DNA of 64,000 nucleotides from positions 9,796,001-9,860,000 of the forward strand of contig OZ231126.1 of the NCBI GenBank assembly GCA_965153355.1, written 5' to 3'. Position numbers and translations under genes: made by a program. The notes beneath the pieces are model-generated. The model was not told where the DNA came from. It did not search any database and saw only the letters and a program-made list of their open reading frames with translations. Shown here in pieces: positions 13,185-53,495 of this stretch. Source of the stretch: Flaccisagitta enflata. Its lineage: Eukaryota. Numbering within the stretch: the stretch's first letter is position 1; the number at the start of each line of letters is the position of its first letter.

Positions 13185-13207
13185 GGTTTGTGTGATCTAT
13201 GCTGAAA

Positions 13208-14444: not shown

Positions 14445-14468
14445 TGGTTTGTGTGATCTGTGCTGAAA

Positions 14469-31800: not shown

Positions 31801-34800
31801 GGAGAAGATAAGCCTGATTTAGGACAAGGTCACCACACCAGCGATGACGATGAAGACGATGATCATGATCGCGGTGGTCGAGGCTCAGGTGATCGAGGCC
31901 GCGATGATCGAGGCCAAGATGACCGAGGCCGAGATGACCACGAGCGCGAGCATCGTAAACAATCATCGAGAGATAACCCAAGAGGGGGAAATGGAGGGGG
32001 CGGATATGATGGGGGAGGAGGTGGACATGGTGGGGATGGAGACAATGGGGGAAATGATCGAAGGGGAGGCCGAAAGCCTTGGGAAAAGGGAAACAGCTAC
32101 CCCTATGACTACTCCACCAACCCCACACCATCGCAAAAGGCCGAGCATCATGAATTGACCAAAAGGCTTAAGTTGCTCAGTAAGGATGCCCCAGAATTCT
32201 CACTCAAAGATGATCGGTCGTTCAGAAGCTTTTATTGTGAGTGGAGCTTTCATTTTAGGTTTTTCTTGAAATTGGATGAGGCATCGCTCGTGTACAAATT
32301 TTGCACCAGTTTTCGCGACAGCGAGTTGCGCTTTCAGGTGCAACAAATGAGCACTGCCCATCCAGGGATAAAGGTTAACGCGCTCGCCGCAAAAATTGGG
32401 GCAACATTAGGGTTAGAAAGTACACAACATTATGAGTGTCAGCTGCAAAGGGCAAGCAGAAGAAGGGGTGAACAGGTGGGACTGTGGGCATTCCGCTTGA
32501 CCGAACTCTACAACCACAGTCTTCCCGCCAAAAATTTTTACGAGTTTGTCCACACAGATTTGTACAGGCAACAATTATTTAATTTATTTTGTAGAGGTAT
32601 CAATAATAAATATTTAGTCCAGGAAATGTATAAAAATGAGATAACCGAAATTTTCGCGGGAGTCGCTTTTTGCCAAAATCTCATCGTCTCTGACCAAGTT
32701 TCAGAGGCAGCGGCCAATTTTGGGAAAACTAACAGCAGCCACTCTTTCTCTATGGCTGATGAGGTTAAGCTCCTTACGAGGAAAAATCGCGATTTCAGCG
32801 ATATAAACGCATTGGGATATACTGACAAAAAGGATTACAAAAAGAAAAAAAGAAATGACAATTGCTTTTTGTGCGGGTCAGACAAACATTGGGCGAAAGA
32901 TTGTGCCCTATCCAAATACAAAGATAGAAAAGATGAGGTTTCCTTTATCAAGGTAAAAAAATCACCAGCCGAATGGCGGAATGAAAAAAAGAGGAAAAGA
33001 GCGAAGGAGCGGGTAAACAATCTTAATCTTGAGGTTGTAGAGAAAAGTGACTCGGGGTCAGATAGCGAAGACTCTCAAGCATCGGAGGCAACGGACTACA
33101 GACCGACCGATAGCGAAGGTGAGGCCGAGACCGGAGAGATCAACCATATCGGAGATAAAGCTAATGACTCTGGGTCAGAGAGTGAGAGCGATGAGATAGC
33201 ACACATGGTCAACGCTTTAAACAAAATGCTTGGCAGGAGAAAAGGCGGGAAGGCTGACGATAAAACCAACAAGCCGAAACACAAAAGCAACCGCATATTC
33301 ACTGACGGACCAAGCGACGTACCATGGGTGACTATCCAAGGATTAGCAGATTTTGTGGCCGATACAGGCTCTTCTTTGTCCCTCCTGCGTCCGCATGAAG
33401 TGCCCCCTTCGGCGAAAAAGATCAAAGTCGATGAGTCTATAGAAGGGGCAGATGGGGAGGTGATCAAATTGGAGAATAAAGTGGACCTGTACATTGATTG
33501 CACTAACAAGCAGTACAGATTGACAGACGATAACACAAAACCACTCATTTCGTTTTACATCTGTGCCGAGACAAAGTGTAACTTGCTCTCATACTTTGAC
33601 ATTGCCAAACTTGGAGTGATCATTAATGATGTTAATTTGGGGGGAAAGAGTGACGATGACAATGATTTCGATGACGATGATGAATGCGACATCGAAACAG
33701 TCACGTACACGATAGTAGACAAAACAGTCACGAAGACAGTCACAGCCACAGTCACTGCGAATGACAGCGGACATGACAGCGACGATGACAGTGACAGTGA
33801 GAGTGACAGCAAAAGTTCAAATCAAAATCATTTCGATCGTCTCCCTCAAAGAGAAAGATGGATAGCCAGACAGAAATCAAGACGGACAGTCAACATCATC
33901 GTCAATAACAGTGACAGTGACGATGACAGTGACGATGACAGTGACGATGACAGTGACGTCAGCAGTCAGTCGATCCGTACGCAATGTCCCTCTCTGGAAG
34001 GAAAACAGACGATCAGACAGACATCGAAACATACAACCAACCAAGATTCCTCACCCACTTACTTGACCGATCGCGGAGATCTTGATAAGCGTAATCTTGT
34101 CTCCCACTTGACTGATGTCGGCCGCCGAAATGCGCGGAAGACCGATCCGATGGTCATTAAAAGTGACCGACCACTGACGCCCGCGAATGACCGACCTCTT
34201 GAAAGAGATCGGAATGCCGACTCTCTCTTGCTTCCTCACCCACTATCTCTGACCGCAGCCCTGAAAAGCAAAGAAAAGATCGAGCATAAAGACATTAGAT
34301 CGGTCTCAAAAAGAGATGTAGTCAACCTAGTGAGTGGAATGTTGCCATTTGCCAAACTTCGTGTGTTTAACAAAAAAAATGCCCCTGTCACATCTGGCAT
34401 CTATTTGCAATGCCTCCTTGACAGCGGTTCAACCTTATGTTTGCTGTCAAAAAAATGGCTTGACAAGTCTGGGCTCACTTTCACCCCACTCCCTCACACC
34501 ATTCACGCGTCCTCTTTCACCGGCAATGATATCAACCTATTGCACAAAATTCAGGCCTATGTAGACTTTGGCACGGGGATCAAGAGACCAGTCACCTTTT
34601 TTATCTTTCAAGGTGACAGTAACTATGAGGGATTATTGGGGTATGACTGTCTGAAGCAAAATCATGTGACCCTCGATGCCGCCAATGACTCATTTTCCAT
34701 TGATGGCTTAGCCCACCCGGTGCACCGTTTTGACCTAGCTAATCAAATCAATGCTCTCCAGTCTGAATCGATCAACTTGGAGAAAATCCCCTTAGTGATT

Positions 34801-37800
34801 GAAAAGGGGGTATCGCTTCGCAGGGGTGATTCACTATTCCTGGGGGTAAAATTAGATCTATCCCAAGGAGGCACTGTCAGCTCGGGAGACGTGCTCTACA
34901 TAGAATTTCCCGAGGAGTATGAAAAGATGGGATTAAAGCCAACTGACCGGGTTGTTCAGATTTATCGCCTTAAGCTAAGGGGTGAAGTTTATGGGACGAA
35001 GGTATTTGTGGAATTCCCCAAAACAGCCGAAGTCGATATAATAAACTTACCCACTGACTCTCCTTTCGGCCACCTTTCTCCTTTATTGCCACCCGAACTC
35101 GAGGACGTTGCCAAAGTAAACGAGGCAAGGGTTCTCCACAATGTGTGTTTCGTTGAATCTGAAAGAGAAGCGGAAGAGTTGAGGGCTGGTAATCGGAAAA
35201 AGTGGCAGGCCCTTCATGACCTTTATTACGGGGCCAGTCCTGAGGAGTTGGCCGAATACTTATCAGCAAAAGGGCCAATCGACTTTAACTGCATTATCCT
35301 CTATCTCAAGAGAAGGCAACTATCTGCCGAGGAAAGGGAAGAGTTGAAGAAGGTTCGAAAGGAGAGAGCAGAATTTTGGACCTATGATGAGATTTTGACT
35401 CACTTTAAGGATCAAATTTCTAAAGTACCCGCTCAATTCAAACAAGACGTCATCAATTTGCTGTATGAAAGGAGGGGTGCCTTTGCGGGAAAATCCAGCC
35501 ACTTGAGGGTAGGGACAATAACCTGGTGTCTCGATGCTATTTATCCACGCGAATTGCAACTGCAAGTGCGTGCCAAACCCGTAAGCGGGCTGAAAAAGCT
35601 CATCACCAATCGCTTACAAAGGATAATGATGGATAGTGGGATCATTGAGCCGGCGAAGGGTAGGCCCGCAGCTTTACACAGGTTCCTTGTTGTACTAAAG
35701 CCTCAAGACAAAGTCAAAAAGCCAGTTGACAAGGCCTCTCTAGATGCCATGACAACGGCTGAGTTAGAAAAATGCTTTCGATGTGTCGTCGACTCGAGTA
35801 ACTTGTCATCTATGTTGTATAAGTCACCTCATCCCGACCCTCCCACCATTTTCCAAACATTGGGGAAAGTAGAATGCGACACTCTCAAAACTTGTGCTGA
35901 CCTCAAACGGGCATATGACCAAACCCGTGCTACAGAGGCTGCAAAGTTGTTGTTTGCATTTGAAACCCAGCTCGTTGGCATACCCCTTGCCGTTTTGAGT
36001 TCCATCCCCCAGGGTTGCCCGGAGGGATCTCGCATCAACCAACGCGTGAGTAGTCACGCGGTGGAGCGGCAAAATAACATACCTGCCAATCTCAGTTTTG
36101 ATGAGTTCAAGGTTGCGTATCGCAAACTTGACGATGACGAAATTGCTGCAGAAAAGCAATGTGCGTTGCGCCGGCGACGCGAAGAGAGAGCCCGGATGAT
36201 CGATCATCGAAGCGAAGGGAGAGAAAAGGATGATGAGGAGGAGTCCTCCTTCGAAAAGCAGGAGAATCGAGCGAAGAAGGAGAATTCCGAGGAAGGAGAG
36301 AAGAAGACGATCGGTCATCGGAAGTCGGTCAAGAGAGAGAGAGAGAGCGAGCATAATGGTATTGGTCGCGAGGTCTTTTTGGAGTCGCTCCAATTGCCAG
36401 TGACCACTGATCCTGACGCCCTCGATAACATGATTGTCAAAGGTTTGTCAACGGGCCCACCTGAGAAAAGGAGAAAGCTGATTTGTGAGAATTCAGCCCA
36501 TGTATACGCTGACGATATCATGGTGCAGTCTCCGACCGAAATTGACCGCATTAAAGAGCTTGAGATTGAGTCTAAAGCACTGCCCCGTCCTGCTCAAAAC
36601 GATAAGGAACTGCCTATCCTGCTACACTTGGCATTCCTCAATAGGGTACTATACTGCCTAGAGGAGGCCAATTTTTTGCTCAGTAGCACAAAAATCAACA
36701 TTCTGTGCCACCTGGAGGGTTTTGAGTACCTGGGCTTTAGCTTCAGGGGGAATATTATTTCCATAGCTCAAAAAACTATAAGTACTATCCAAGCCTTGCC
36801 AGACCCCAAAACCCTCAAGGAGACACAAAAAATCATCGGCATGACTGTCTATATAGGGCAGGTGATGCGCCATGGACGCATCATGACCGGTTTCCTCAGT
36901 GACAAGCTAAAGAAAGGCGTGACCTTCAAATTTACCGATGACGACAGGGAGAAATTCCAGAGGCTCAAAGACTTGTTATGTCAAGTTCATATGAAAGGGT
37001 ATCTTTACGCTTTAGACACCAATGTGAAAGACAAGACATTTATTTTGTACAGTGACTGGAGCTATGTAGTGCACAGCTCCAGTTCTTGCCTTCTTGTAAA
37101 ACTACACACCAAGGAGGGTACCACTGTCCTACCCGCTGTCTCTGACTCTCGCTCGCTCGTTGACTCTGTCCGCTCAAAAGGTTCGACCATCTGTGAGATG
37201 GCCGCCCTCGTAAGTTCACTCCAGCACCTTAGACCGATCCTCTTCCTTGCCCCGTTCATTTGCTACACCGACAACATTGCGCTCCAGTTCCTGATGAACC
37301 GGCGCTTTGCTACCAATGTGGCTTTGGACTCGACTGTGGCTCAGAGGCTGCTCCTATCGGTCAATGACCTATTCTTTCAATGTCGCTATGTGCCCTCTGA
37401 GCTACAACTCGCAGATGGACTGTCCAGGATCAAATTAGAGACAGGGAAGACCGTTGACCAACTCCTTACCAATTCAAATAAAATCACGGATTTCGACTAT
37501 GTCGAGCGTATGGTCAGACCAAACAAAGCGGACGAAAATGAGTCTCAGTTTCTAGAAAGGGCGGAAAGAAACATTGACATGATCCGCCGACTAGAGACCG
37601 AGGCCGGGGATACAAGGGGGGATTTGTACCAACTCTTCAGGAAAACCCACTTCAGTGTGAAAAACAAGGAAGTGCTCAGTCTGACCGACCGCCCGATCTC
37701 ACCTCTTGAAGAAGTTGACCCCCAGACCAAGCTTGAGACCGACGATAGTCCTCCACGGTCGATCGGTTTCTTTGATCAGGAAAATGAGGGCGGGCTAATG

Positions 37801-40539
37801 ACCGAGGCCGGCGGAGATGAGAGTGTGAAGGCCGACCGAACGGGAAAACGATCATCGCTAGACAGCGATGGTGGGAAGACCGATGACGATGATCGGTCAC
37901 GTGACCAGGCCGAAATCTGCAAAGGGGGAAATGACACACAGGATAATAAGGTGGTAAATGAGCTGAACTTTACCAAAATCACATCCCCGCGTGAGAAAAA
38001 AATCTCTCCACGCAAATCTACACCCAGTCACGCCCCCCTTGACAAAGAATCAATTGACAAAATGACACAGGATGAGTTGATTGATGTCTTTAACCAAAAG
38101 CCCATTATCCCCGATCATCAGCCCTCCGATTTTGACTCCCTTCCCATTAACCAACTTGAAGAGGAGGAAAACCGGATCGCAACTGATAAGTACCAAGAGA
38201 CCCCATACGAGTACCGAACGGACATTTTAGACATGCTTCTTCGCTCAAACACAAATGACCGATCAGGCCTAAGCACCAAAGGACAAAAGATCGCGAGACA
38301 AGACAGTCTTATGATCACCCGATACCCAGATTTAGTTGCCACTATCATCCATGACACCCCCGATGGTATTTTAAGCGATGGGTTTGGGCATGAACAAAGC
38401 AGCGTTCTGGATTATCTCTGTGAGATCAACTACATATTGCACACTACGGGCCCACAAGATCCTACTCCCCTCTTTGAAAGTTATGAAGACGCACATCGTT
38501 ACTTCAAAAGGGGGCGCTTAGCCGATGAATTTAGGGATCAATACAAATTTTGGATCGCATGTCAAACCCGAGATCTAGACATGCAGGTCTTACGCAAGTT
38601 GGTCAAAGGTGAGCTGTCCCTAGAAGATGACTCAGTTGACATAATTAGGAAAACGAGTCGTTTGGCTCATGTTCTGATCAATGACCTCGACTCACTATTT
38701 ATGTTCCAAGACCTTTTGTTCAAACTCGTTTTTCCCACTCGCGGGCAAAAGGCAAGGGCCCTTCTCATTCTCAGCCCCCAAGACTTGGGCAGGATCGCCC
38801 TTAGGCACCACGGGCTGGCTCACAGGGGCGGGTTATACACCTACACCATTCTAGCTAATCGCTACTACACCGTTAACATGTATCAGACCATCTTGGATCA
38901 AATCAAGGGGTGTAGTGTGTGTGCCGATTTCCACCTAAATAAAAAGAAATCCTACACTGCCCTTACCAACGTTCTGGACCTCTCGAGCATCTCCCAGATC
39001 AGTGTGGATTTGAAGGGACCCCTCGAAAGGGCCCCTACCACCCCCAGTAAGAAAAAGGGGAACCCTTGGGACGAGAAGCGCGTTAGAAAGTTCTGGATCC
39101 TGTGCATCGTGAATCCAATCACCGGCCTAAACCAGTTCTTTTATCTGCCGGACAAAAAGGCGTCAACTGTGGTCAGGTGTCTGTATGAAAAGTTCATACG
39201 CTTCCACTCAGGGATAACACACGTGCAACTTGACGAAGGCCCAGAATTTGCAAATGCGTGCCAGGCGGAACTGGCAAGCCTAATGAAGTTTTCCCTTAAG
39301 TTTACCTGCAAGGCAAACCCCAGGGCAAACAGAGGAGAGGGTTCCGTTCAGAAGCTGTCAAACTTATTAAAGGCTGTGTTACAAGGATCCGAGTTCAGAA
39401 TCAAGGACAAACTGACAGACCTGTCCATTATCTCCAACTCTGTATACTTCTCAGAGATAAGTGGGCGCGCCGCCAATGATGCCCATGGGGTCAGCAACGG
39501 CGACGCACTAGCCTACTCCCCTGCCATCATCTGTGGGAAGGAGGAATACAAACACAAGGGTCAGCACTGGACAGACGTCTCGGACTCGATGAGGGAAATC
39601 GTTAGACTGATAAGGGAACATTACAACTGCTTTATCACTCTCAAACGATCAAACTTACACACCTTCGAGTCACTCAATATCAAAAAGGGGGACGTGGTGT
39701 ACTTCAGGTCCTATTCTAAGGCCCACCCGGTCTCTATAGGTCTCAAATCGCTTTGTCCGTCCTGGAGTTTGGGCCGTGTGGAAACGATCTTATCCAGGTC
39801 CGCGGCCATAGTCAAAAACATACAGACGGACGCACGGGTACGTCGCCATATCAGCGATATTCACCCCATCTGGGACCAAGGATCATGGGCACTAACTACC
39901 AACTGGAAGAGTAATTTCGATTCTTACCAAACTGAGAAGGCTGGTCTTGACCTCAACGACTCGGTCGAGACGGCGAAGAGAAGAGACGACGATGCCATCA
40001 AAGCTCGATCCGCGAATCAGGCCAGTAGAGGCGAGGACAACCCCCCCGCTGGTCCGACCAAAGTGACCGACGGTCGCTCGCGAGATGAAAAGCTGTCGTT
40101 GAAGAATGACCGAGTGAGTAAATCCGATAAGTCCGTGAAATCCAGCAAAGGATCGAGGGCCGACCGTCCGAAGCACAGAGAGAGCGACGATCACAAAGTG
40201 AGTCCGAAACCGCGCACGCGACTTCGATCGAAGTATGATGGTGCGTCCGAAGATGAACAGAAAATGACCGAGGACGTGATGAGTAAGATCCGAAAGGCGA
40301 AGAAAAGCACAAAGTCTGTTTCTGAGCGAAAAAATCATGACGAGGGAGACGATTGGAGCATTAAGGGAAACAACGGCTCCCTCAAACGCAGATCGCGAAA
40401 GTCAAGCAATAGGGCATCGCGTTCATTTGACAGCGATGACCACGAGGATGAGGATAGTCAGGATAGTCTGCCTTCCAAAGACAATCGTCGTCGATCTAAG
40501 AGGCTGGCAAGAAAGCCTCGGGTCGACTACAGAGAGTAG
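28846..40539 (+). CDS. 3897-aa Gag-Pol polyprotein (long N-terminal extension, CA-like, CCHC, PR1, PR2, RT, RNase H, integrase)
   Basis: RRRGEQVGLWAFRLTEL Gag-like motif; CFLCGSDKHWAKDC (32863-32904); ADTGS (D at 33361); LDSGS (D at 34420); ADLKRAYDQ, PQG, YADD (36505); RNase H YSDW/EMAAL/YTDN/ADGLSR; integrase HHGLAH...CSVC, VDLKGP, LDEGPEF, RGEGSV. Confidence 0.96.
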   Translation: MEGDPWDGINKFLLAERKEIVEKFGFYYDRRYWFLVKPSTIRSGSFFPLGGYRSLGLKSRFVAPGETKLDKKPFDELKNFRSSQIFEIASKPRDSLNGPNVLYWVYGFFSFVPILRPCKICLRRNERNCDCDTLLVAFIEEFQEVVRQKQKNIHEPFTYDLRRNFNLRVAEGYDKEILPGPERLTDYYLEGPLILSDNIATKDGKLIPAKPQSRGVIEALKSVFSHKNAPDSSFSLPADSFDRNPNASLSVTLTNDSLNESSLATDSHTPRKSLCDEIHVASPHHPAGKPFTPDLSSPDQSTLTADDITVVQLHSDPTPTPDLTTQTSDPQSNEDPNLPVSDPVEPIDNPFKLTGLSADPLPGVSDLDPSVDPPESISTMSTITESVDTETGQKGEKEVCYPAAYLAFCFFCSEERMFKLGHCPKMGCGMPFRMVPSLKTDAILDIERYSPPFPARMLSESNDEREKYVCQALFNSDELKFENGLYVVGKNASDPLLINAARVLRNRGKPGNLDSFDVSGLSSDDVVTKEKTKFVIHSLQHNFNRQRLKEYDSYFNLDIKILNMIWNKGFTELGPVGEHDLPRGVYLSEFRNQVEKELTKGREVFTKIFDTEKYDHGLGFRYCAHKNEFSTFGEAGWEVVDKTKLWDQKTIPFLRSFNCGPRRLYLKLILDKFKDHTPEELDNMGLEPRNIELIRLEIQKAQEIDDKKLEFMRLNKLTRELAPIDGNHKTYEQYFEAILSKHLNKKILPPTASKADKEKMPGESAYEDFIDPEDIHDLLNFSYGFSAQTDKTRKAILKRGTTKHRNLPLTRDAPAEDHYDMTALEKKAHETLTEYNRSRGVDIDSIREIREKRDPYREPKNTYLKILNDHAEADRKSNPKHSTPIRKTVSIGKHGDDDDGDDDDSDDDDDKRSNKEDGKSDDRDKKTPDDRAKFDNDLNDTVNPFFAPKERPTSSKGLDSSRGETVGDRLLRLSGSTVEQTKPKEGEDKPDLGQGHHTSDDDEDDDHDRGGRGSGDRGRDDRGQDDRGRDDHEREHRKQSSRDNPRGGNGGGGYDGGGGGHGGDGDNGGNDRRGGRKPWEKGNSYPYDYSTNPTPSQKAEHHELTKRLKLLSKDAPEFSLKDDRSFRSFYCEWSFHFRFFLKLDEASLVYKFCTSFRDSELRFQVQQMSTAHPGIKVNALAAKIGATLGLESTQHYECQLQRASRRRGEQVGLWAFRLTELYNHSLPAKNFYEFVHTDLYRQQLFNLFCRGINNKYLVQEMYKNEITEIFAGVAFCQNLIVSDQVSEAAANFGKTNSSHSFSMADEVKLLTRKNRDFSDINALGYTDKKDYKKKKRNDNCFLCGSDKHWAKDCALSKYKDRKDEVSFIKVKKSPAEWRNEKKRKRAKERVNNLNLEVVEKSDSGSDSEDSQASEATDYRPTDSEGEAETGEINHIGDKANDSGSESESDEIAHMVNALNKMLGRRKGGKADDKTNKPKHKSNRIFTDGPSDVPWVTIQGLADFVADTGSSLSLLRPHEVPPSAKKIKVDESIEGADGEVIKLENKVDLYIDCTNKQYRLTDDNTKPLISFYICAETKCNLLSYFDIAKLGVIINDVNLGGKSDDDNDFDDDDECDIETVTYTIVDKTVTKTVTATVTANDSGHDSDDDSDSESDSKSSNQNHFDRLPQRERWIARQKSRRTVNIIVNNSDSDDDSDDDSDDDSDVSSQSIRTQCPSLEGKQTIRQTSKHTTNQDSSPTYLTDRGDLDKRNLVSHLTDVGRRNARKTDPMVIKSDRPLTPANDRPLERDRNADSLLLPHPLSLTAALKSKEKIEHKDIRSVSKRDVVNLVSGMLPFAKLRVFNKKNAPVTSGIYLQCLLDSGSTLCLLSKKWLDKSGLTFTPLPHTIHASSFTGNDINLLHKIQAYVDFGTGIKRPVTFFIFQGDSNYEGLLGYDCLKQNHVTLDAANDSFSIDGLAHPVHRFDLANQINALQSESINLEKIPLVIEKGVSLRRGDSLFLGVKLDLSQGGTVSSGDVLYIEFPEEYEKMGLKPTDRVVQIYRLKLRGEVYGTKVFVEFPKTAEVDIINLPTDSPFGHLSPLLPPELEDVAKVNEARVLHNVCFVESEREAEELRAGNRKKWQALHDLYYGASPEELAEYLSAKGPIDFNCIILYLKRRQLSAEEREELKKVRKERAEFWTYDEILTHFKDQISKVPAQFKQDVINLLYERRGAFAGKSSHLRVGTITWCLDAIYPRELQLQVRAKPVSGLKKLITNRLQRIMMDSGIIEPAKGRPAALHRFLVVLKPQDKVKKPVDKASLDAMTTAELEKCFRCVVDSSNLSSMLYKSPHPDPPTIFQTLGKVECDTLKTCADLKRAYDQTRATEAAKLLFAFETQLVGIPLAVLSSIPQGCPEGSRINQRVSSHAVERQNNIPANLSFDEFKVAYRKLDDDEIAAEKQCALRRRREERARMIDHRSEGREKDDEEESSFEKQENRAKKENSEEGEKKTIGHRKSVKRERESEHNGIGREVFLESLQLPVTTDPDALDNMIVKGLSTGPPEKRRKLICENSAHVYADDIMVQSPTEIDRIKELEIESKALPRPAQNDKELPILLHLAFLNRVLYCLEEANFLLSSTKINILCHLEGFEYLGFSFRGNIISIAQKTISTIQALPDPKTLKETQKIIGMTVYIGQVMRHGRIMTGFLSDKLKKGVTFKFTDDDREKFQRLKDLLCQVHMKGYLYALDTNVKDKTFILYSDWSYVVHSSSSCLLVKLHTKEGTTVLPAVSDSRSLVDSVRSKGSTICEMAALVSSLQHLRPILFLAPFICYTDNIALQFLMNRRFATNVALDSTVAQRLLLSVNDLFFQCRYVPSELQLADGLSRIKLETGKTVDQLLTNSNKITDFDYVERMVRPNKADENESQFLERAERNIDMIRRLETEAGDTRGDLYQLFRKTHFSVKNKEVLSLTDRPISPLEEVDPQTKLETDDSPPRSIGFFDQENEGGLMTEAGGDESVKADRTGKRSSLDSDGGKTDDDDRSRDQAEICKGGNDTQDNKVVNELNFTKITSPREKKISPRKSTPSHAPLDKESIDKMTQDELIDVFNQKPIIPDHQPSDFDSLPINQLEEEENRIATDKYQETPYEYRTDILDMLLRSNTNDRSGLSTKGQKIARQDSLMITRYPDLVATIIHDTPDGILSDGFGHEQSSVLDYLCEINYILHTTGPQDPTPLFESYEDAHRYFKRGRLADEFRDQYKFWIACQTRDLDMQVLRKLVKGELSLEDDSVDIIRKTSRLAHVLINDLDSLFMFQDLLFKLVFPTRGQKARALLILSPQDLGRIALRHHGLAHRGGLYTYTILANRYYTVNMYQTILDQIKGCSVCADFHLNKKKSYTALTNVLDLSSISQISVDLKGPLERAPTTPSKKKGNPWDEKRVRKFWILCIVNPITGLNQFFYLPDKKASTVVRCLYEKFIRFHSGITHVQLDEGPEFANACQAELASLMKFSLKFTCKANPRANRGEGSVQKLSNLLKAVLQGSEFRIKDKLTDLSIISNSVYFSEISGRAANDAHGVSNGDALAYSPAIICGKEEYKHKGQHWTDVSDSMREIVRLIREHYNCFITLKRSNLHTFESLNIKKGDVVYFRSYSKAHPVSIGLKSLCPSWSLGRVETILSRSAAIVKNIQTDARVRRHISDIHPIWDQGSWALTTNWKSNFDSYQTEKAGLDLNDSVETAKRRDDDAIKARSANQASRGEDNPPAGPTKVTDGRSRDEKLSLKNDRVSKSDKSVKSSKGSRADRPKHRESDDHKVSPKPRTRLRSKYDGASEDEQKMTEDVMSKIRKAKKSTKSVSERKNHDEGDDWSIKGNNGSLKRRSRKSSNRASRSFDSDDHEDEDSQDSLPSKDNRRRSKRLARKPRVDYRE

Positions 40540-41337
40540 ATTCGAGTCTGCATGTTTTTTAGGATAGTGTACAGTGTATAGTGTTTAACCTGTGTACAGA
40601 ATCAACCAATTTATTCTAAAGAATATATGCCAAATTTGAATCGAGTGAATTTAATTGACGTCCGATTTAACATAATGAAAAATCCACAACACTGCAAACG
40701 GGTCGAACGTAATTGTTTTTTAAATCCACTTAGGGCGAGTGTTAGCGAAATTACATGTGTCTACGAAAGACATGGGCGTTTTGCAAATATTGCATGGGTG
40801 GAAATCCGATGTCGCTTAACAAAGAGACCACTCCTTTGGGTACGCGGCGCGGAATCCTGACGTTGATGAGTTTGTTTATTTGGTTGAGCTTGGGGTACGG
40901 AATCTGTCCACGACCATGGCAATAGTCGCAAGAGAAGGTTGTGTTGCGAATTTGAAGTAGGATGCCGAAAATGACCGTGTTGAACCGATAATCCCCGTAT
41001 CCTTGCCTGGAATAAGAGATTAGGTCAATTATTCAGAAAGAGAGAAATGGCTATTTGATCGATCGAATCAGATCAACCGAATCATTCATCGAGTCGAATG
41101 AATGAGATGGTTGGTGTGACAAGATCTGACCGATCCGACCGGTTGACCGATTTGACCGATCATCGCTCAGTAACGATGATAAGTTTGATATAAAAACAAG
41201 ACACTCATCGATGCTAGTACCATTTCGATTCAATCTTACAATCAAGCAATATTCCAAAAAATACATACGATCAACCAAGTCATTTTTCACATGCTATATG
41301 ACAAACTGTTTCAATAACTTTTTGTGAAATAGCGAAA

Positions 41338-41904
41338 ATGGCCGACAACAACAACAACAACAACAACGAACAACAGCGTCAACAACAACAAATCATCACT
41401 GAATGCTCGCCAACATTCTGTGCATGCGATCCCAATTTGGATCGCTGCCAACAAGGATTTTCAAACAACAGATCCTTAAATTGGGCTGAGTCAGCCCATA
41501 ATTTTCATCTATATCGCGTTCAACAACGAATTGACGCGTCAGTACAAAATGCCTACCATGAGGAGTCCACTTCCAACATCAGAAGACACCTCATGGCTAG
41601 CCGTTTCACAACCGAGCAAAATCCCGCTTCCATGTGGGGACGGTACCAAAGAAACGCGCGGGTAGCTCGAGAAAACTCAATGTTGTCCAGTCGAAGACCG
41701 ACCAACACTGCCTCTCGCCCCTTCGGCATTTTGGTACCGGAGCAGGCTGCCGAAAGGCCCTTATTACATCTAGCAGCTCTGCAAGGCCAAGACCATCTGG
41801 CCAAAGACCATGAACTCGTCTGTCGCCACGAAATTGGCTATTGCATTTCGGGCGACTCAGACAGCAATCATTCATTCGAACAATCACGCAAAAGACAAAA
41901 ATAA
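41338..41904 (+). CDS. Element-internal 188-aa ORF, unknown function
   Basis: ATG in AAAATGG context; N/Q-rich start, CSPTFCACDPNLDRC and HELVCRHEIGYC Cys/His clusters; no recognised family. Confidence 0.55.
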   Translation: MADNNNNNNNEQQRQQQQIITECSPTFCACDPNLDRCQQGFSNNRSLNWAESAHNFHLYRVQQRIDASVQNAYHEESTSNIRRHLMASRFTTEQNPASMWGRYQRNARVARENSMLSSRRPTNTASRPFGILVPEQAAERPLLHLAALQGQDHLAKDHELVCRHEIGYCISGDSDSNHSFEQSRKRQK

Positions 41905-41978
41905 TCACTTGTTGTAGCATCTGTAAATATCGTTGTACTAGCATTGATGATAATCTTTGTCGATGTAGATATCGTTCA

Positions 41979-43289
41979 CTAACGTTCATGAATAAATAAA
42001 CCCAACTTAAACCAACTGAAGTGTTTAACTTTACAATAGATTGACCGTTCGTCCTCTCACCTAAAAGCTTGGTGGACGGATTTGAGAGCGTGCTGGCAGG
42101 CTGAACCGATGGCCAAATTAACGTCAGAACACCCGATGCATGCGTAAGGAAGACCTTTAGAAATATAACAAAATTTCCAAACGAAACAATCTTGCATAGT
42201 AATTTTAGGCTGCAATATAATCTACCTAATTTACCACTACTTACCACTATAATAATCGGCTGGGTAGATTTCCCACACTGACGGTCCGACCAGAGCGATG
42301 TGTTCGACGTAAAATTTGATCGCACAAAAAACGAGATCCTCGTAGTAAGCAATCCCGATTATCATGAGAAGCACCATGATCCCTGGCACGACCGGGTCGA
42401 TGGTGATGAGTGTGACCACGCAATAACCCCCAATGACACCAAGGAGGGTTTTGCCATGCTCTGCGAATGAATGAATGAATGAATAAGTGAATGAATGAGT
42501 GAATAAATGAATGAATAATATGAATGAATGAATGAATGAATGAGTGAATAAGTAAGTGAATGAATAAATGAATGGATAAGTGAGCTAAGGAATGAATAAG
42601 TGAACGAATAAATGAACGAGTGAATGACCGAATGAATGAGTGAATGAACGATAAATGAATGAATAAATGAACGAATAAATGAATGAATGAGTGAACGAAT
42701 GAATGAATGAATGAACGAATGAGCGCATGAATGATAGGTGATCAAATGAATGATTAAGAACGAATCCTGCCTGAAGAGATGAAGCGAATCAGTTCCAAAA
42801 TTAGAACGTAAGCGGTGAACTGGCCCAGAGGATACTGCTTGAGACGGAAGTTCCACCAAATAGCATTCAAACGGGGAAACGATAGCAGGGTTTCTGATAA
42901 AGATTTACGAGGATTTGGCATGTAAAACTATATATATATCAATTCTAGGCCGATCAGAATTCACATAAAACGACAAAGCACCGCAGAATCTCACCCGTGT
43001 CGATTTCGTCCTCCTCGTCTTTTTCTTCTTCGTCCGACGTGTACATGGAACTGTCGTCGTCGTCGTCGTTGTCGCCGTCGTCGTTTTCGTTGTTGCCATC
43101 ATCCACTCGGCGACGGACGCGTCGTCCTTGGCCGTCGCCGCCGTCACCAACGCTTTCACCATCATTCAAACGACGGATTCGTCCGCCACCACCGTTGTCG
43201 TTGTCAATCGCGTAATATCCCTCCGCCACAACGTTCCTGTCACCAGACCCGCTAGTTGACGACACGTTAGCATCACTTGAATCCTCCAT
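41979..43289 (-). CDS. Antisense spliced element gene B, 254 aa: acidic N-terminus plus hydrophobic region; exons 43289-42995, 42893-42771, 42460-42245, 42154-42061, 42015-41979
   Basis: Five exons join in frame (765 nt incl. stop); one intron needs a GC donor (CAG|GCAGG at 42770), the rest are GT-AG. Confidence 0.65.
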
Positions 43290-44029
43290 GTCGACTTATG
43301 TCCGATTTCTGATAAATAGTAAGATTTCTTTTAGCGAGCAAAAAATTCTTTTTTGGGCGAGATTTTTGTAGAAAAATAAACGGTCCACAGATTAAGTGAC
43401 TGACCGGGCTGGGGGGAATTGACTAAATGAGCAACAGGGGGGAAGAAGAGCTGGGAAGAAGAACATAAAATTTTTTAAATTTCAGGAAGAGCAGCCCTTA
43501 CCTCTTGACTCATCGCTGGATGAGTTGCGTGGCCGCCTTCCCACACCCTTGTCTCCTCCCATCACCGGAAGAGGCTCAGGGCAATACCACTTAAGAATCA
43601 CTTAAGAGTCACTCAAGATTCAGAGTCAGTGAATCGATCGAACAATCGTGTCGAGCAGTTTGTTTTTGGAATGTTGCTCAAGTAGTCAATACATTCTGCC
43701 AGTTTGGTTCTGTCTGAAAAGTTAATTGAAACATATATATATATATATATATAAAAAAAACTACAGGAGGTGGCCTGACTGGCCAACGGCTCCCGTCTAT
43801 CTACTCTCTCTCTCTTTCTCTCTTTCTCTCTTTCTCTCTTTCTCTCTCTCTCAATTTCAATCATGATTCAATCATCTTTATCATCCTCAATCGTATTCAA
43901 TCATCTTTTTCTTCCGTCAAACTTCAATCATTTTCATTATCATCGTCATTTTCAGTCATCTTTTCAAGTCTCTCTTTTCCTCGTCAGTCCATCTTTTCTT
44001 CTTTCTTTTTCTCCTCTTCCTCCTCTCCT

Positions 44030-45531
44030 TTAGACGGGGGTCTCGCGGCCCATCTGGTCGCTGTCGCCGCCGTCGTTGTTGTCGTCGTCGCTGACGTGAC
44101 TGAGGGTGGGCGGCGCCGGAAGCCTCTTGGCCGCCGCCGCCTCGAGGTCGCGCCTCGCCACGTCGCCTCCCACGAGGTTGGCGAGGATCCCATCGGTCGT
44201 ACTATTGAATAGAGATATCAAAATATATAATTCCTGACCAGGGCAGGCTAGATAAAATGACCTCGCCCCCCCACTCATCCACTCACCTCATCGAGTAAGT
44301 GTTGGAGGAAGCGGCCGAGGATCTGCCAAAGAAATGAGATCGCCATAAGCACAGATAAGAGTGACCATCGGGTCTCACCCTCACACTCCAACAAGCCACT
44401 TATTTTCCTACTCACCTCCACAATAATACCCGCTCCCACACGGACCGGGGGTGGCTGCCCCTCCTTCGATAACAGCGAATCACTGAAAATGGGGATTTAA
44501 GGTCAAACTCAGACTAGGAAGTCATCATTCAAATTGTAGGCATGATTTGGTTAACACTCACAGAATACACTTTGGTGAACTTACTCTCTGCTGCGGTCAC
44601 CCCCGAGGCCAAAATGATGGCCAGCATCGCAACCGCGATCAGGATATAACTGTAAAAAGAGAAAAGCCCCTCTTAACACCCATTCATGACTTTCTAAGGT
44701 CTCTTGTTTGTTGAGCAAATTCTCAAAGAGACCATAAAACAGGTATGCGACGTTGTCGACTCTTCTGGATGTCGATAACTATCAATTTTGATAGACTTAA
44801 GATCATTTGAACCTAATTGACCTTTCTCAGCATTGTCTACATTTAAAGATGGTACTGTTCGAATTAGCCATGTAAGTAAGTTCTTTACCCTAATCGCCTT
44901 GTCTCTTCAGAGATTGTTATCTGTGTCAGTCCGGTGTGAGTTATGTTTGCTAATATTTCTCCTGAGACATGACAAAATATTTACAACCATATGCAAATGA
45001 GATTCAAGCGTGCACCTTAAAATTTAGCAATCAAAACTTACGCCCAAGTAGGGAGCGCCGAGGCCGGGGCTGCCGGTGGATCCTGCTCGGGGGGGGTGGC
45101 GGTGGTGTTGGCGCCTACCAACACCTCCATCACCATCGTCGCCGCCGTTGTTGTCGCCCCCAGACAACGCCTCGCGAGGATCGCCGGGTCTCTGTTTAGG
45201 ACATAAATGAATATTCCTTAATATCTTTATCTTTTTAACATTCTTTAACATTCTTTAACATTTTTTAACATCTTCTTAACATTCTTTAACATTCCTTAAC
45301 ATTCTTTAACATCCTCTAACATCGTCTAAAACATTTTAATATTCCTTACTATGCTGACCGACCGACTGACATGACCAACTAAAATCCAAATATTCCACCA
45401 TCAGACCGACTGACCGACTTTACTCACCTAGAGCCATAAGATGAGGCAGCCAACCGGAGACAATTGACTTCTACTGCCGACAGTGACGACCGACCGACGG
45501 ACGCCATGACTGACGTGACGTTGATGAACAT
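44030..45531 (-). CDS. Antisense spliced element gene A, 197-aa single-pass membrane protein; exons 45531-45428, 45191-45042, 44649-44585, 44482-44416, 44322-44287, 44201-44030
   Basis: Five introns all with GT(A/G)AGT donors and YAG acceptors, phases consistent (594 nt incl. stop); TM WAYILIAVAMLAIILASGVTAA then IRCYRRR; C-terminus ETPV. Confidence 0.85.
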
Positions 45532-46364: not shown

Positions 46365-48887
46365 GTGCCCCAACAATCACCCAAATCTCAAGATGCGTTG
46401 AAACTACTCATCTTAACAACCACTTCTCTGTTCTCCCCTCCTCTCTCCGCCCCTGACTGTTCACTTCGTGTGTGTTCTCTCTGTCCGATGTCTGGCCCAC
46501 AAATCTGTCAATCTTACAGAGCGAGGAGAGAAGAGGCGAGAACGAACGCAGAAGTCCTCAAGCGCGTGCTCTTTCTAATATTCTTCTTCAAGATTGTTCA
46601 ACCGAGTGCTGTCACTATTAACATCCCTGACCCTCGGGCTCCCTGCATTAGTTTAGAAATGGCCCTGCCCATTGTCAAAATACAAAATTCACCCCCCTCG
46701 ACTCTCGATATGAGCTTTGATTTTGATATAAAGACCCTGTATTCTCAAAGGTACGGGCAAAAGGCCCCCACTAGTGATAATCATAAAGAAGTGTTTAAAT
46801 GCGCCACTCAGGTTGGGGAAGAAATATCCAAATTGATAGACTCTTTCATTTTACGTGTCATTGACTTGATTGAACTCAGACAGGAATCTTATTTGACCGA
46901 TGGGGAAAATTACAATGACGCGGACAAACAGACCAACAAACCTCGCCGTCGCGAAACCAGAAGTGGGATGAATCCTCGCTCGAACAGATCATCTCATGGT
47001 TTGTCCGAGGGAGAAAAATCTCATCTTCGAGAAGCGATAGAGCTGACAAATGAACAGTGGTCGTTTTCTGACCACTGGCTTGACGAACAGATTAGGAGCG
47101 ACCTCTCGGGGGGGACAAATTCAACTGAGTTTGGTGACATCAAAATTAGGAACAAAAGGGATCCCGCGACATTCATAAGTATTGTCATATCTCTTATCGC
47201 GTTGACAGCTACGGCGTCAACCAGTCTGTTCCTCGGCGCGCGTCTGGAAAAACTGGTTGACTATGTAGACTCATTAAGCAAAGCCGTTGAAGGTGATTGG
47301 CAATCAATTCAAGTAGGATTCAAAAATCTGATTTTATTAAAGGATGGATATGGTTCCATGGCTGCCGGCGCTCATTACATGAGTCAAACCATCCGGCGCC
47401 TACTAGAATATAATTTATGTCACATACAACAAACTAGACTCTTTTTCGAGATGAGAGCGATTGCCAACCGCCTTGACGGCATTTTTGAAAGCTTGGTATT
47501 AGGAAAGTTCAGCACTAAGATTCTCCCTCTACCACTCCTTAAGGAAATTTTCTCCCAGAGTTCGATCGCCGATGATGTTTTGAGCAAAGCTGTTCCGACC
47601 TCGTTCTATCAAGGGGCTAGTCTGTCTGTCCTCTCTGCCGATCGAGCTAAAAAGAGCGTCCGTCTAATATTTGTCGCACCACGCATCGAGCGAGAGCCGA
47701 GTTATCGAGTTTTGAAAGTACACTCTGTTTCATCAACTATATCCGTGAATGGCCGCATCTTTGACCGAGTTTTCTCTTTCGATGCTGACAAGATTGCTAT
47801 CCCGATCGATCTCTACGAAAAACATCACGATGATATGATCTTATCTGCAGCGGAGGTGCAGCAATTACGCATCCCGACCGAGTGTAGCTTTACCAACGGT
47901 CTGTTTGGATGTAGGAATTTTCTCTCTCTCCCAAGTCAGGTTTCATCGTGTCTCGCAGCTGTATTCGCTAGAGATTGGCCGAAGATGCAGTCCCAGTGTC
48001 GGATCAGAATGATCCCTCAGGCCCATCATCACCCAGTGTCCACTAGTTCAGGTTCCACGGGGATGTTACTTAGCTGCGTTTCTACTTACCGTCTGTACGG
48101 AATTGATCACACAAAATCAAAACACTACCAGAGAGAGGATTTAACCAAGATGGCCACCCGTGACGCATCAACTTCTTTGTGCGTCTGGGTGCCTTTACAC
48201 TTTAGTAAAATTCAAATTTTGGACGATCAAGGAAATAGACTAGATGAAATTGAACAGGATACCAAACTTATGATCAGGAATGGGTTGGTAAGAGACATAA
48301 CTGATTACGAAACTAAACATTTCCACTATTTCCAACGACAAGTTACAATGGACAACATGAGTCTTCTCAACTTTACTGGTCATTACGAGGACATTAATTC
48401 ACATTGGGGAAATATTGGCAAGCATGATCTGCCCGTTTTTGATATGAATGAAGAGCGTAAGATTTTCCTTGAGATTGGACTGGCCGTTGTAGTTGCGTTC
48501 ATCCTATGTTTGTATTTGGCCAAACTTGCGATGTGTCTGAGACGAAGGTACGCCCGTCCAACTGCCGGCCAGGCTGGTAGAGCCCGAGCTCAAATCACTT
48601 ATGCCCGCTCCGCCTCTCCGACGGTTACTCTTAACCTCCCACCAGCCTTGCCCCCGCCAAATCCTAACCGCCAAAACGATTCCCAAGATGATGATCTAAC
48701 CGAACCCAAGGATCGTCGCCCACGAGGCTTGAATCCCCCCTCGCCGACCAGTCAAGTGAGCTTTGTCGAAGATTGCAGCGGTTGTCCCGATCGCGATCCA
48801 ATCTTTGACCCCCGCGATTTTGTTGGTCGCGAGAGTCATCCTCCACAGACGCTTCCTCCCAAACCAGCGCGTGTGCAGACCACCTAA
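46365..48887 (+). CDS. env: Envelope glycoprotein, class I fusion-protein architecture (first ATG 46488)
   Basis: Hydrophobic VLFLIFFFKIV, furin-type RNKR (47148-59) followed by hydrophobic DPATFISIVISLIALTATASTSLFLG, heptad-like LEKLVDYVDSLSKAV, Cys-rich ectodomain, TM IFLEIGLAVVVAFILCLYLA (~48462-48521), Pro-rich tail. Confidence 0.88.
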   Translation: MPQQSPKSQDALKLLILTTTSLFSPPLSAPDCSLRVCSLCPMSGPQICQSYRARREEARTNAEVLKRVLFLIFFFKIVQPSAVTINIPDPRAPCISLEMALPIVKIQNSPPSTLDMSFDFDIKTLYSQRYGQKAPTSDNHKEVFKCATQVGEEISKLIDSFILRVIDLIELRQESYLTDGENYNDADKQTNKPRRRETRSGMNPRSNRSSHGLSEGEKSHLREAIELTNEQWSFSDHWLDEQIRSDLSGGTNSTEFGDIKIRNKRDPATFISIVISLIALTATASTSLFLGARLEKLVDYVDSLSKAVEGDWQSIQVGFKNLILLKDGYGSMAAGAHYMSQTIRRLLEYNLCHIQQTRLFFEMRAIANRLDGIFESLVLGKFSTKILPLPLLKEIFSQSSIADDVLSKAVPTSFYQGASLSVLSADRAKKSVRLIFVAPRIEREPSYRVLKVHSVSSTISVNGRIFDRVFSFDADKIAIPIDLYEKHHDDMILSAAEVQQLRIPTECSFTNGLFGCRNFLSLPSQVSSCLAAVFARDWPKMQSQCRIRMIPQAHHHPVSTSSGSTGMLLSCVSTYRLYGIDHTKSKHYQREDLTKMATRDASTSLCVWVPLHFSKIQILDDQGNRLDEIEQDTKLMIRNGLVRDITDYETKHFHYFQRQVTMDNMSLLNFTGHYEDINSHWGNIGKHDLPVFDMNEERKIFLEIGLAVVVAFILCLYLAKLAMCLRRRYARPTAGQAGRARAQITYARSASPTVTLNLPPALPPPNPNRQNDSQDDDLTEPKDRRPRGLNPPSPTSQVSFVEDCSGCPDRDPIFDPRDFVGRESHPPQTLPPKPARVQTT

Positions 48888-50232: not shown

Positions 50233-50802
50233 TGAGGTTTTTGGGGACTGCCTACTATGGTATTTCTATGGAAGCTTGGAAGCAACCCACTACCCCCAAA
50301 AACTCTCCCCATTGTGCCCTGCATATTTGAATGTACTAAATTCCTTTCCCCCTCATTTTGCCCCTTTGTGTGACTCTGTGCCTTGTAGGACTGTGTATTC
50401 AATGCCCCTTATCATTGTTGTGACCCGTTGCCTTACTGTTACATATTCCTGCTTCACATTCCTGTTATATACTCTGAACAGAGATCGCCTTTTTTGCCCT
50501 AGAACCTCACCCCAAAATGTATTCCCATTTTGTTTGTCCTCCACTGATAATATGTCTTCCTCTTCCTCACTCTCTCTGCCCAACTCCTATATAACCGGTC
50601 CCTCACCCAAGCTCAATGTTCTTTTTCTGTACTACAATTGCTGTTACGCTTTTTGCTGAATGTTTCTATACTTCAACAAATTAAAACGTGTCTCCGCAAT
50701 TACTTTGTCCTAAGAAAGGGAACCACCGCAAACTAACATCCAGTGTAATTCAGTCACACCATAGTCTGTGTCATTTAGCTACGTTTAGCGACACAAACTT
50801 TA
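50233..50802 (+). repeat. 3' LTR
   Basis: 570 bp, no differences from the 5' LTR seen by eye. Confidence 0.96.
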
Positions 50803-53495
50803 TATGCACGTTTTTCACTTTTAGGCTAGTAGGGTGGTTTGGTGGTAGGCTGGTTTAGATAAATAGTGTGCGTATGTTGAGTTCTTCCATTTAGAGACTC
50901 CATACCAAGTTTCAAACAATTTGGTTGAAAAATGTCCAATTTAAGTAAGTTTTTTCTTTTAGGCCGATAAGCTGGTTGGGTGGTAGGTCGGTTTGGCCGA
51001 TTAGCATGCTCAAATGCATATAAATCATATACATATGTTGAGGCCTTCCATTTAGAGACTCCATACCAAATTTCAGCCAAATCGGTTGAAAAATGCCAAA
51101 GTTATGCACGTTTATCACTTTTTGGTTGGTAGGCTGGTTGGGTGGTAGGCTGGTTTAACAGGATAAATAGTTTGCATATGCTGAGTCCTTCCATTTAGAG
51201 ACTCCATACCAAGTTTCAACCAAATCAGTTGAAAAATGACAAAGTTACGCAAGTTTTTCACTTTTAGGCCGGTTGGCTGGTTGGGTGGTAGGTCGGTTTG
51301 GCCGGTTAGCATGCTCAAATGCATATAAATCATATACATATGTTGAGGCCTTCCATTTAGAGACTCCATACCAAATTTCAACCAAATCGGTTGAAAAATG
51401 CCAAAGTTATGCACGTTTTTCACTTTTAGGCCGGTAGGCTGGTTGGGTGGTAGGCTGGTTTGACAGGATAAATAGTGCGCATATGTTGAGTACTTCCATT
51501 TAGAGACCCCATACCAAGTTTCAACCAAATTAGTTGAAAAATGACAAAGTTATGCAAGTTTTTCACTTTTAGGCCGGTTGGCTGGTTGGGTGGTAGGTTG
51601 GTTTGGCCGGTTAGCATGCTCAAATGCATATAAATCATATACATATGTTGAGTCCTTCCATTTAGAGACTCCATACCAAATTTCAGCCAAATCGGTTGAA
51701 AAATGCCAAAGTTATGCACGTTTTTCACTTTTAGGCCGGTAGGCTGGTTGGGCCGGTTGGGTTGGTCGGATCACAAAAATCGGATAGGATGTAAAGCGCC
51801 TTAACCTAGTACAACTTCCCACCAAATATGAACCAAATCGGTCAAAGCATAAAAAAGTTATCCATTTTTTAAAATCCGTCACGACGACGACGACGACAAC
51901 GACGACGACGACGACACCCACCCGCCTTGAATTATAGTCCGCGTCGGAATGATATTCCGTCGCGGACAAAAAGGGAAAGATCACGAGAGTCGATCACGAA
52001 AAGTAGGTTGGAAAAACCGTAATTAACATCGCGGTAATGCGATTTTTATACCGGGCGCCGAATCTACCATCTACACACACATCATTTGACTGAAAACGAT
52101 AGAAAAAGTCATAAAGACGAGATTTGTTAAAATATGTAAAATGATAGGCATAATTTCTTCTCTCTCGCCTTTCTTTAACAAGCCGGTAAAGAAGGGAAGT
52201 CCATTTTCAAAAAAAGGTTTCTTTTGATCATTTCGATATCCTATCTGCAGGTACCGGTAGAAGCAAATAATAAATGTTCTTTTTTAATAATACATTTATC
52301 TCAGCCAATAAGTATGAAAAGAAGCCCTGTGAAGGCATATCGATAAGAACGGATCAATAATCCACCCGCTTCTTTGGAAAACGACCGCCGCGCTATCTCA
52401 ATTCTCAATCTATGAATACATGTAGCTCAAGATCACAGGAATGGAACTGTACGAGTGTAATGAACAGAACAAAGCGGAAGTTTTGAAATTTGACGCAGAA
52501 AAGAGGAACCCCTTACAAAAATGATGAACGCGAATGAAAATTGAGCGAACAAGCATGGAGCAAAGAGAGAAATGATTATGGAGTATGGAGCAAACTGAGA
52601 ATAAAGAGATTTTAAGACACATGAATAAAGCGAGCGAACAAGCATGGAGCAAAGAAGGAAATGATTATGGAGCATGGAGCAAAGTGAGAATATAGAGATT
52701 TTAAGAGACACATGAATAAAGCGAGCGAGCAAGCATGGAGCAAAGAGAGAAATGAGCATGGAGTATGGAGCAAACTGAGAATAAAGAGATTTTAAGAGAA
52801 ACATAAACAAAGCGAGCGCAAGGAACGAAAGGAGAAACGCTCATGAAATCAACCAAGAATGGAATGACAAAAGAGATGAGCGTCGGTCAAACAAGGAGAG
52901 AGTGAGTCGAATGCGCGTGGAGCAAAAAACGAATAGACATCGAGCGAGTTGAATGAGCGAGGAAGGAAACAAGGAAAATGAAAAAGATGAGACACTGTCC
53001 TTTTTTTTCACCAAGTTTCTGGACAACAGAGACGCCCAATCGGCAAATGATGTCACGAACATTCAGTTCATTCGAGACTCGCTTAAATCTTAGATTAAGT
53101 AAACGACGCATGATGAAACCGAGTAAGAATTCGTTTGAGGACTAAATGGACAAGTTCCGGCTTGCTCATCGCTTTATCATCGTCACATTTCATTTCATTG
53201 AGGTCGCGATGGAAGGAAGATGCCAATATCTTCGATTAACAACCTCATCTCGGTCCATGTCTTCGCCAAATCGTTTTTCTCCATGAACTTCTCCTTTGGT
53301 TTACCCATTCCTTCTCAACTTCGTTACCATCACTTCAAATTCATCCCGTCGCTTTCCCTTTGGATTTTTACCGCCATTTCCAACTAGGACCGCGTCTCCT
53401 TCACCATCCCTGATTCTCGTCATCTTCCATTCCCTCGGCCATCATCATCATCATCGTCATCATCATCGTCGTCGTCGTCATCATCTCTTTCTCAT

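Follow-up and report, generated by a model that had tools for sequence, protein, structure and literature searches.

Within a 64,000-nucleotide stretch of the Flaccisagitta enflata genome (contig OZ231126.1, forward-strand positions 9,796,001 to 9,860,000; hereafter the window, to which all coordinates refer) we find a 23,902-bp retroelement, bounded by long terminal repeats (LTRs), that carries a predicted spliced gene for a product of 243 amino acids on the strand opposite to its gag-pol and env-like open reading frames (ORFs). We consider it probable that this is a real, intron-containing, protein-coding gene, borne as antisense cargo by a very young 23.9-kb env-bearing element, and that it and a second antisense gene directly upstream supply accessory factors at the provirus stage. 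An element that replicates by reverse transcription should lose its introns, yet two multi-exon genes here have come through a very recent retrotransposition with theirs in place, since they run in the opposite direction.

The retroelement spans positions 26901 to 50802 with both LTRs included (Table 1). Its LTRs are identical, and the tetranucleotide TATG stands on either side as a target-site duplication. The insertion target is a tandem satellite (26813-26900 and 50807-51860) in which the spacing alternates between 143 and 162 bp, with the insertion point within one unit. An empty site reconstructed from the two flanks and a single TATG aligns without gaps, over positions 3-110 of its 120, to the satellite units at 50860-51860 with 87-90% identity. 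Because the LTRs are identical, TATG is found on both sides and the empty site matches the flanking satellite, the whole 23,902-bp unit came in by one very recent insertion event, with the antisense introns already in place. The duplication and the empty site together rule out a native host locus lying between two unrelated LTRs. We also looked for terminal repeats bracketing the antisense cassette within the element and found none, and we rejected on this ground that the cassette was brought in by a nested transposon.

The sense strand of the element has the contents of a retrovirus-like genome. A primer-binding-site-like sequence starting with TGG, TGGTGTCACCG, lies 2 nt past the 5' LTR, and a purine-rich tract, AAGGAATTGGGGGGATA, with the end GGGGGGATA, precedes the 3' LTR as read from the sequence. 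The gag-pol ORF contains a zinc knuckle, two aspartic-protease-like motifs, a reverse transcriptase (RT) with YADD, RNase H and integrase. In Pfam the order is protease, RT, RNase H and integrase, at residues 1857-1936, 2550-2634, 2732-2822 and 3321-3362 (E-values of 9e-4 for the aspartic protease, 3.3e-6 for RVT_1, 2.9e-4 for RT_RNaseH and 4.7e-4 for Integrase_H2C2), and the best relatives in the PDB are PFV integrase (4.9e-5) and Ty3 RT (5.4e-4). This ORF is unusually long; its protease-like motifs are DTGSS near residue 1530 and DSGST near residue 1860, and it has long low-complexity inserts of Asp, Ser and Gly. In the translation of the env-like ORF we recognize a hydrophobic stretch at the N terminus, RNKR followed by a further hydrophobic stretch, and a membrane span at the C terminus. 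It has no match in Pfam or the PDB, and its AlphaFold 2 (AF2) model is unusable, with a predicted local distance difference test score (pLDDT) of 34.6. Scans of IMG/VR with the env-like ORF and with pol found nothing, and the pol region had no relative among proteins of 2144-6824 residues, a size limit that makes this search uninformative. Judged by these sequence features, the element is a Ty3/gypsy-like, retrovirus-like LTR retroelement with an env-like ORF.

The antisense gene lies between pol and env, reads on the minus strand from 43289 to 42057 and overlaps no sense ORF. It is modeled with four coding exons, three introns that are all in phase 1, and an additional intron in the 5' untranslated region (5'UTR); the start ATG has a good context, with G at both -3 and +4. 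An earlier note, made from the letters of the window alone, had proposed a spliced antisense gene of 254 amino acids. The open spliced frame and the orientation, opposite to an element with a 3899-residue gag-pol, both hold; the length comes to 243 residues, and the coding sequence ends at a TGA (42059-42057) rather than bordering on 41979, as had been suggested. The peptide strings quoted at that time are all reproduced exactly once the minus-strand exons are joined, and the GT-AG intron placed upstream of the ATG has its sites at 43501-43309 (GAG/GTAAGG and TTATCAG/A, with a slash at the border). The further minus-strand gene expected directly upstream likewise takes shape, as a six-exon chain of 189 residues (gene A).

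Table 1. Positions of the retroelement, its ORFs and the parts of its antisense genes (window coordinates; slashes mark exon-intron borders)
Feature	Position	Strand	Details
(TA)n tract	43730-43753	-	upstream of the gene; candidate TATA-like promoter element
5'UTR intron	43309-43501	-	193 nt, GAG/GTAAGG ... TTATCAG/A; ends 19 nt upstream of the ATG; predicted
Coding exon 1	42995-43289	-	295 nt from ATG 43289; acidic, Gly-rich N terminus
Intron 1	42894-42994	-	101 nt, phase 1, CGG/GTGAGA ... TTTATCAG/A; predicted
Coding exon 2	42771-42893	-	123 nt; hydrophobic segment, weak
Intron 2	42461-42770	-	310 nt, phase 1, (TTCA)n microsatellite; CAG/GCAGGA donor, TTCGCAG/A acceptor; predicted
Coding exon 3	42245-42460	-	216 nt; two hydrophobic helices, short ..DP..PG.. 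turn, then conserved KFYVEHI...WEIYPAD segment
Intron 3	42155-42244	-	90 nt, phase 1, GTG/GTAAGT ... TTCTAAAG/G; predicted
Coding exon 4	42057-42154	-	CxxC-x11-CxH; TGA stop 42059-42057 overlaps donor-like AG/GTGAGA
5' LTR	26901-27470	+	570 bp, TG...TA; 0 mismatches to 3' LTR (570/570 positions)
3' LTR	50233-50802	+	570 bp; preceded by purine tract
Target-site duplication	26897-26900	.	TATG, second copy 50803-50806; flanks both LTRs
gag-pol ORF	28846-40539	+	open from 28840, first ATG 28846; 3899 residues stop to stop
env-like ORF	46488-48887	+	799 residues; features read from translation
Gene A	44030-45507	-	exons 45507-45428, 45191-45042, 44649-44585, 44482-44416, 44322-44287, 44201-44030

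The length of this open chain is not readily obtained by chance. When the longest ATG-to-stop chain was sought in 42000-43320, allowing only strong donors, acceptors preceded by pyrimidines and at most three introns, the minus strand yielded 256 residues and the plus strand 111. None of 100 dinucleotide shuffles of the same region reached 243 residues (mean 98, maximum 223). Among equal-sized slices of the window 8/96 did so, of which one holds the gene itself, four fall within gag-pol, one in the region of the host gene REPS, and two in the repeat arrays with long ORFs at ~7.9 and ~15.9 kb. The strong donor motifs in 43320-41300 number four and are exactly those used by the chain. Codon-usage and codon-position scores, trained on gag-pol together with the host exons of the window, favor the model frame over the other two minus-strand frames in exons 1, 3 and 4. 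A single plus-strand frame does about as well in exons 1 and 3, and in exon 1 the model frame is also the best of all six in one of the two tests.

The second intron is supported as host-style by comparison with other genes of the window. As had been noted earlier, it is a 4-nt repeat tract, which Tandem Repeats Finder delimits at 42465-42734 (period 4, 67.5 copies, 72% matches). With at most one mismatch allowed, the window has 19 occurrences of the motif (TTCA)4 where 0.01 would be expected, and these fall in two places only, 16 at 42464-42719 and three at 24116-24183, the latter between two exons of SNW1 and on the same strand as these. The proposal that the same repeat fills introns of neighboring genes therefore stands for SNW1; the tract at ~54660-54740 is the complementary repeat, (TGAA/TAAA)n, on the sense strand of REPS, and its placement in an intron is at most putative. 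The predicted splice sites combine a GC donor in an AG/GCA.G context with a normal acceptor, as in GC-AG introns. A host precedent had been claimed in REPS and is confirmed: CAG/GCAAGT at ~56706 and an acceptor at ~56460 bring both parts of an EH domain together in frame. This junction, "...YYITQFKTMQ" to "ADVEGLIHG...", completes the domain, and the Pfam match of the downstream ORF begins only at profile position 18.

Three other ways of reading this part of the gene were considered. An in-frame GT donor 9 nt downstream (TTC/GTTCTT) agrees with the donor consensus at 3/9 positions against 6/9 for the GC site by hand count and was rejected. The (TTCA)n tract itself might be coding, and its other frames are open, but the frame of exon 2 stops at ~42755, which is also what had been foreseen for a GC donor that is not used. 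In that event exon 2 could be skipped, and since every intron is in phase 1, the frame would survive the skipping.

Independent evidence for the gene comes from exon 3. A phmmer search with its 71 residues against 1.84 billion protein cluster representatives (E <=1e-3) returned seven relatives, with identities of 96, 55, 51, 38, 38, 35 and 36% and E-values from 9.6e-38 to 7.4e-4: P0002 (96%, 9.6e-38), P0003 (55%, 2e-19), P0004 (51%, 8.9e-15) and P0005-P0008 (35-38%, 1e-8 to 7e-4). All seven are unnamed ORFs of 69-112 residues on contigs of 0.5-3.5 kb from ENA metagenome assemblies. Their alignment has nine invariant columns and conservative replacements in the hydrophobic helices. The similarity starts in every relative about 2 residues ahead of a conserved Gly-Lys, and in 7/7 it ends with a Gly, after which comes K, E, V, S or a stop, as would fit read-through of GT donors (G/GTAAG, G/GTGAG and similar). 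The upstream part of P0002 is (FIHS)n, a read-through of the same microsatellite intron as intron 2. From these alignments we conclude that exon 3 is a true exon and that the gene family to which it belongs has diverged while keeping its exon borders. The earlier note had also entertained a de novo accessory gene; a de novo origin in the element is contradicted, because exon 3 has relatives that share its borders at identities as low as 35%. The gene may be a captured host gene, which that note also proposed, or one that the element has long possessed.

The family has so far been encountered only at the size of one exon. No relative of at least 126 residues was found in three protein searches (0/15 candidates and 0/8000 scored among longer proteins), the 64-kb window holds no paralogue of exon 3 elsewhere, and scans for the context of the relatives in JGI metagenomes, IMG/VR and GTDB genomes found none. 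Such an absence is what one would predict for a family that lies within masked repeats, and the case illustrates how repeat masking and prokaryote-style ORF calling conceal such genes from annotation. Pfam assigned no family to exons 1-3, and within the exon 3 family one of the eight members matches DUF3487, at an E-value of only 0.012. A profile search of the PDB with this family gave 0 matches at E-values up to 10, and the Atlas search for the product family gave no usable match. If expressed, the product would represent a new protein family, seen to date only as exon-sized ORFs in marine metagenomes.

In the predicted product, the first 100 residues are rich in Asp and Gly and have a net charge of -23, residues 145-187 give hydropathy values of 1.9-2.25 in 19-residue windows, and the C terminus has the pattern CxxC-x11-CxH. 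AF2 models exon 3 as three helices, at a low confidence (pLDDT 62.7) that does not permit a fold search. These features suggest a membrane protein anchored by a hairpin, with an acidic, disordered N-terminal tail and both ends in the cytosol.

Several results weigh against our interpretation, and we collect them here. Every Pfam match of gag-pol is below the curated cut-offs. The GC donor of intron 2 differs from the usual AG/GCAAGT at +4 and +6 and is weaker than the example in REPS. Exon 2 is neutral in both coding-score tests and has no coding signal of its own. Strong donors occur at about chance density, with ~4 estimated per 2 kb and 4 found, so the case rests on the open frame and not on motif counts. 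No minus-strand AATAAA lies between the stop and 40880; the nearest are at 40880 and 40615, which leaves the 3' end undefined. The exon 3 relatives may be ordinary host genes; the copy in the element would then be a passenger. Finally, that the product and the neighboring single-pass protein act as accessory factors at membranes is a guess, based on composition and position.

Taken to their extreme, these points would describe exon 3 as a once-coding remnant, independently supported as it alone is, surrounded by chance splice-like motifs from which no protein is made; the neutral exon 2, the chance density of donors and the lack of a polyadenylation signal near the stop all agree with this. 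We regard such a relic as very unlikely. The length of the chain is matched in 0/100 shuffles, the model frame is the best minus-strand frame not only in exon 3 but in exons 1 and 4, the uniform phase of the introns keeps the frame even without exon 2, the ATG is in a good context, and the identical LTRs leave little time for decay.

A different possibility is that both minus-strand genes are host DNA, taken up at the DNA level and either still expressed or decaying, with no role for the element. Intron 2 is host-style, sharing (TTCA)n with SNW1 and the GC-AG type with REPS; the relatives at 35-55% identity with conserved exon borders are what an ordinary gene family would show across related species; and Pfam finds no known retroelement or viral domain in the product. 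Yet complete open spliced frames are kept in both genes, the very large protein collections searched hold no full-length annotated homologue, and both genes have in common with gag-pol an Asp/Gly-rich, low-complexity style. Neither capture scars nor the borders of a nested element were found. On this balance we consider mere passengers unlikely and retain the reading of an antisense cargo with a role for its carrier.

The position of the stop codon raises the question of a longer product, which we think quite improbable. The TGA overlaps a donor-like AG/GTGAGA at 42060; if this were used, an intron of 55 or 82 nt (acceptor at 42006 or 41979) would lead into a fifth exon that ends at 41606, giving 375 residues with the 42006 acceptor and 9 codons fewer with the one at 41979. 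The chain does stay open through the 42060 donor, the minus-strand frame at 41606-42358 is open for 250 codons, and the nearest minus-strand AATAAA signals, at 40880 and 40615, are further down. The candidate fifth exon, however, shows in none of its frames a coding signal by codon usage or codon position, it overlaps a 200-residue plus-strand ORF with an equally weak signal, and reaching an open frame there has a one-in-three chance. The ORFs at 41302-41904 (plus strand, 200 codons) and 41606-42358 (minus strand, 250 codons) overlap just downstream of pol, and neither has a coding signal. Between this pair and the stop of the gene, AATAAATAAA is found on the plus strand at 41991-42000. More ORFs, of 87-93 codons, lie on the minus strand at 40751-41032, near an acceptor-like site at ~41006 and the AATAAA at 40880, and could represent either a further exon or one more antisense gene, the third.

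For the 243-residue gene we propose the following course. The element would be copied through its plus-strand RNA, on which the introns of the gene read CT...AC or CT...GC and would not be substrates of the spliceosome; because they are invisible to it on this RNA, reverse transcription would leave them in place. Transcription of the gene, against the direction of the element, would be possible only once the DNA copy has integrated and would probably start at an internal promoter, with the (TA)n tract at 43730-43753 as a candidate. An internal promoter is likelier than one in the LTR because the 3' LTR is ~6.5 kb away, beyond the env-like ORF. Just past the (TA)n tract and upstream of the 5'UTR exon there is an acceptor-like TTTTCAG/A at ~43716 on the minus strand, a candidate site for co-transcription with the upstream gene or for trans-splicing; an in-frame fusion with that gene through this acceptor was rejected, as the lengths calculated from the coordinates are out of frame. 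The host spliceosome would then remove the 5'UTR intron and the three phase-1 coding introns, one of them GC-AG, and translation would give a 243-residue protein with an acidic, disordered N-terminal tail, a helical hairpin in the membrane, and a cytosolic C-terminal part with KFYVEHI/WEIYPAD and CxxC...CxH. Both antisense products would most likely serve as provirus-stage accessory factors at membranes, for example in the handling of env, in particle assembly or in the exclusion of further copies. If expressed, they would represent a new kind of accessory cargo for env-bearing Ty3/gypsy-like elements of animals, one that is intron-bearing, internally promoted and targeted to membranes.

A broader proposal can be put forward only tentatively. 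Exon 3 may mark a conserved, hitherto unannotated protein family whose members serve a lineage of giant env-bearing retroelements in marine animals as accessory membrane proteins; these elements would carry intron-containing antisense cassettes with their own promoter, express them from integrated copies only, and use them to steer the membrane steps of their spread or to block further copies. We hold this to be possible though on balance doubtful; if such a lineage exists, antisense placement would be a general route by which retroelements carry spliceosomal genes.

Antisense genes are known from other LTR-bounded genomes. HBZ of HTLV-1, like the gene in our element, is protein-coding and lies on the proviral minus strand; it is expressed from integrated DNA only, and its transcripts, which begin in the 3' LTR, are both spliced and polyadenylated (as described in PMC1459196 and PMC10186651). 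Here, in contrast, an env-like ORF, an upstream gene and ~6.5 kb lie between the gene and the 3' LTR, a position that argues against an LTR start; the product has no bZIP or other Pfam domain (exons 1-3 and the exon 3 family), and the host has an invertebrate-type genome. HIV-1 ASP is encoded by an unspliced ORF that overlaps env. Our gene differs from it in having four introns and no overlap with a sense ORF, and the likeness drawn here is one of description. ASP is described as a small hydrophobic membrane protein, antisense in the retroviral genome (PMC3182985). The main text of a 2023 review (PMC10186651) makes no mention of introns or invertebrates.

A parallel in position is found in plants: in Ty3/gypsy elements of the Tat/Retand type, the stretch from pol to the 3' LTR contains antisense ORFs that are thought to be regulatory, and the internal region is unusually long (PMC7264820, PMC11963269). 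A Transposase_28 domain is reported in 57/104 of these plant antisense ORFs (PMC11963269), and the main texts of both papers do not mention introns. The antisense gene described here is also located between pol and the 3' LTR. It differs in having no Pfam domain, in the company of a sense env-like ORF with membrane spans, and in its surroundings of the animal-type host genes SNW1, REPS (EH domains) and SDE2.

Among animal elements, env-carrying Ty3/gypsy elements are described as widespread in metazoans, their F-type env having a furin-type site, a hydrophobic stretch and a C-terminal membrane span (PMC13524379). From its sequence, our element resembles such errantivirus-like elements in combining gag-pol with a sense ORF that has a furin-type site, then a hydrophobic stretch, and a C-terminal span, whereas its 3899-residue gag-pol and the two-gene antisense cassette between pol and env set it apart. 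The main text of PMC13524379 does not mention opposite-strand, antisense or accessory genes. LTR retrotransposons of bdelloid rotifers have captured extra ORFs, including ORF3s of a transmembrane type (PMC5408684), and are alike in being animal LTR elements with additional ORFs; in the body of that paper antisense is used only of small RNAs, and introns and opposite-strand genes are not mentioned. In the open-access full texts that were searched we came upon no animal LTR retroelement described as having multi-exon antisense genes, which is not proof of absence.

The second antisense gene, gene A, was assembled by the choice of splice consensus alone, and its six exons together give 570 nt of unbroken frame from ATG to TAA. 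The predicted protein crosses the membrane once, is rich in Thr and Pro along one stretch and has a tail rich in Asp. Outside the retroelement, the window contains duplicated blocks of ~0.7-1 kb at 8018-9067 and 12972-16886, which are 95-99% identical and include a run of minus-strand ORFs with one weak match to NPHP3_N. A large tandem array with an 11-bp period occupies 3216-5956 and is organized into higher-order repeats of ~740-870 bp.

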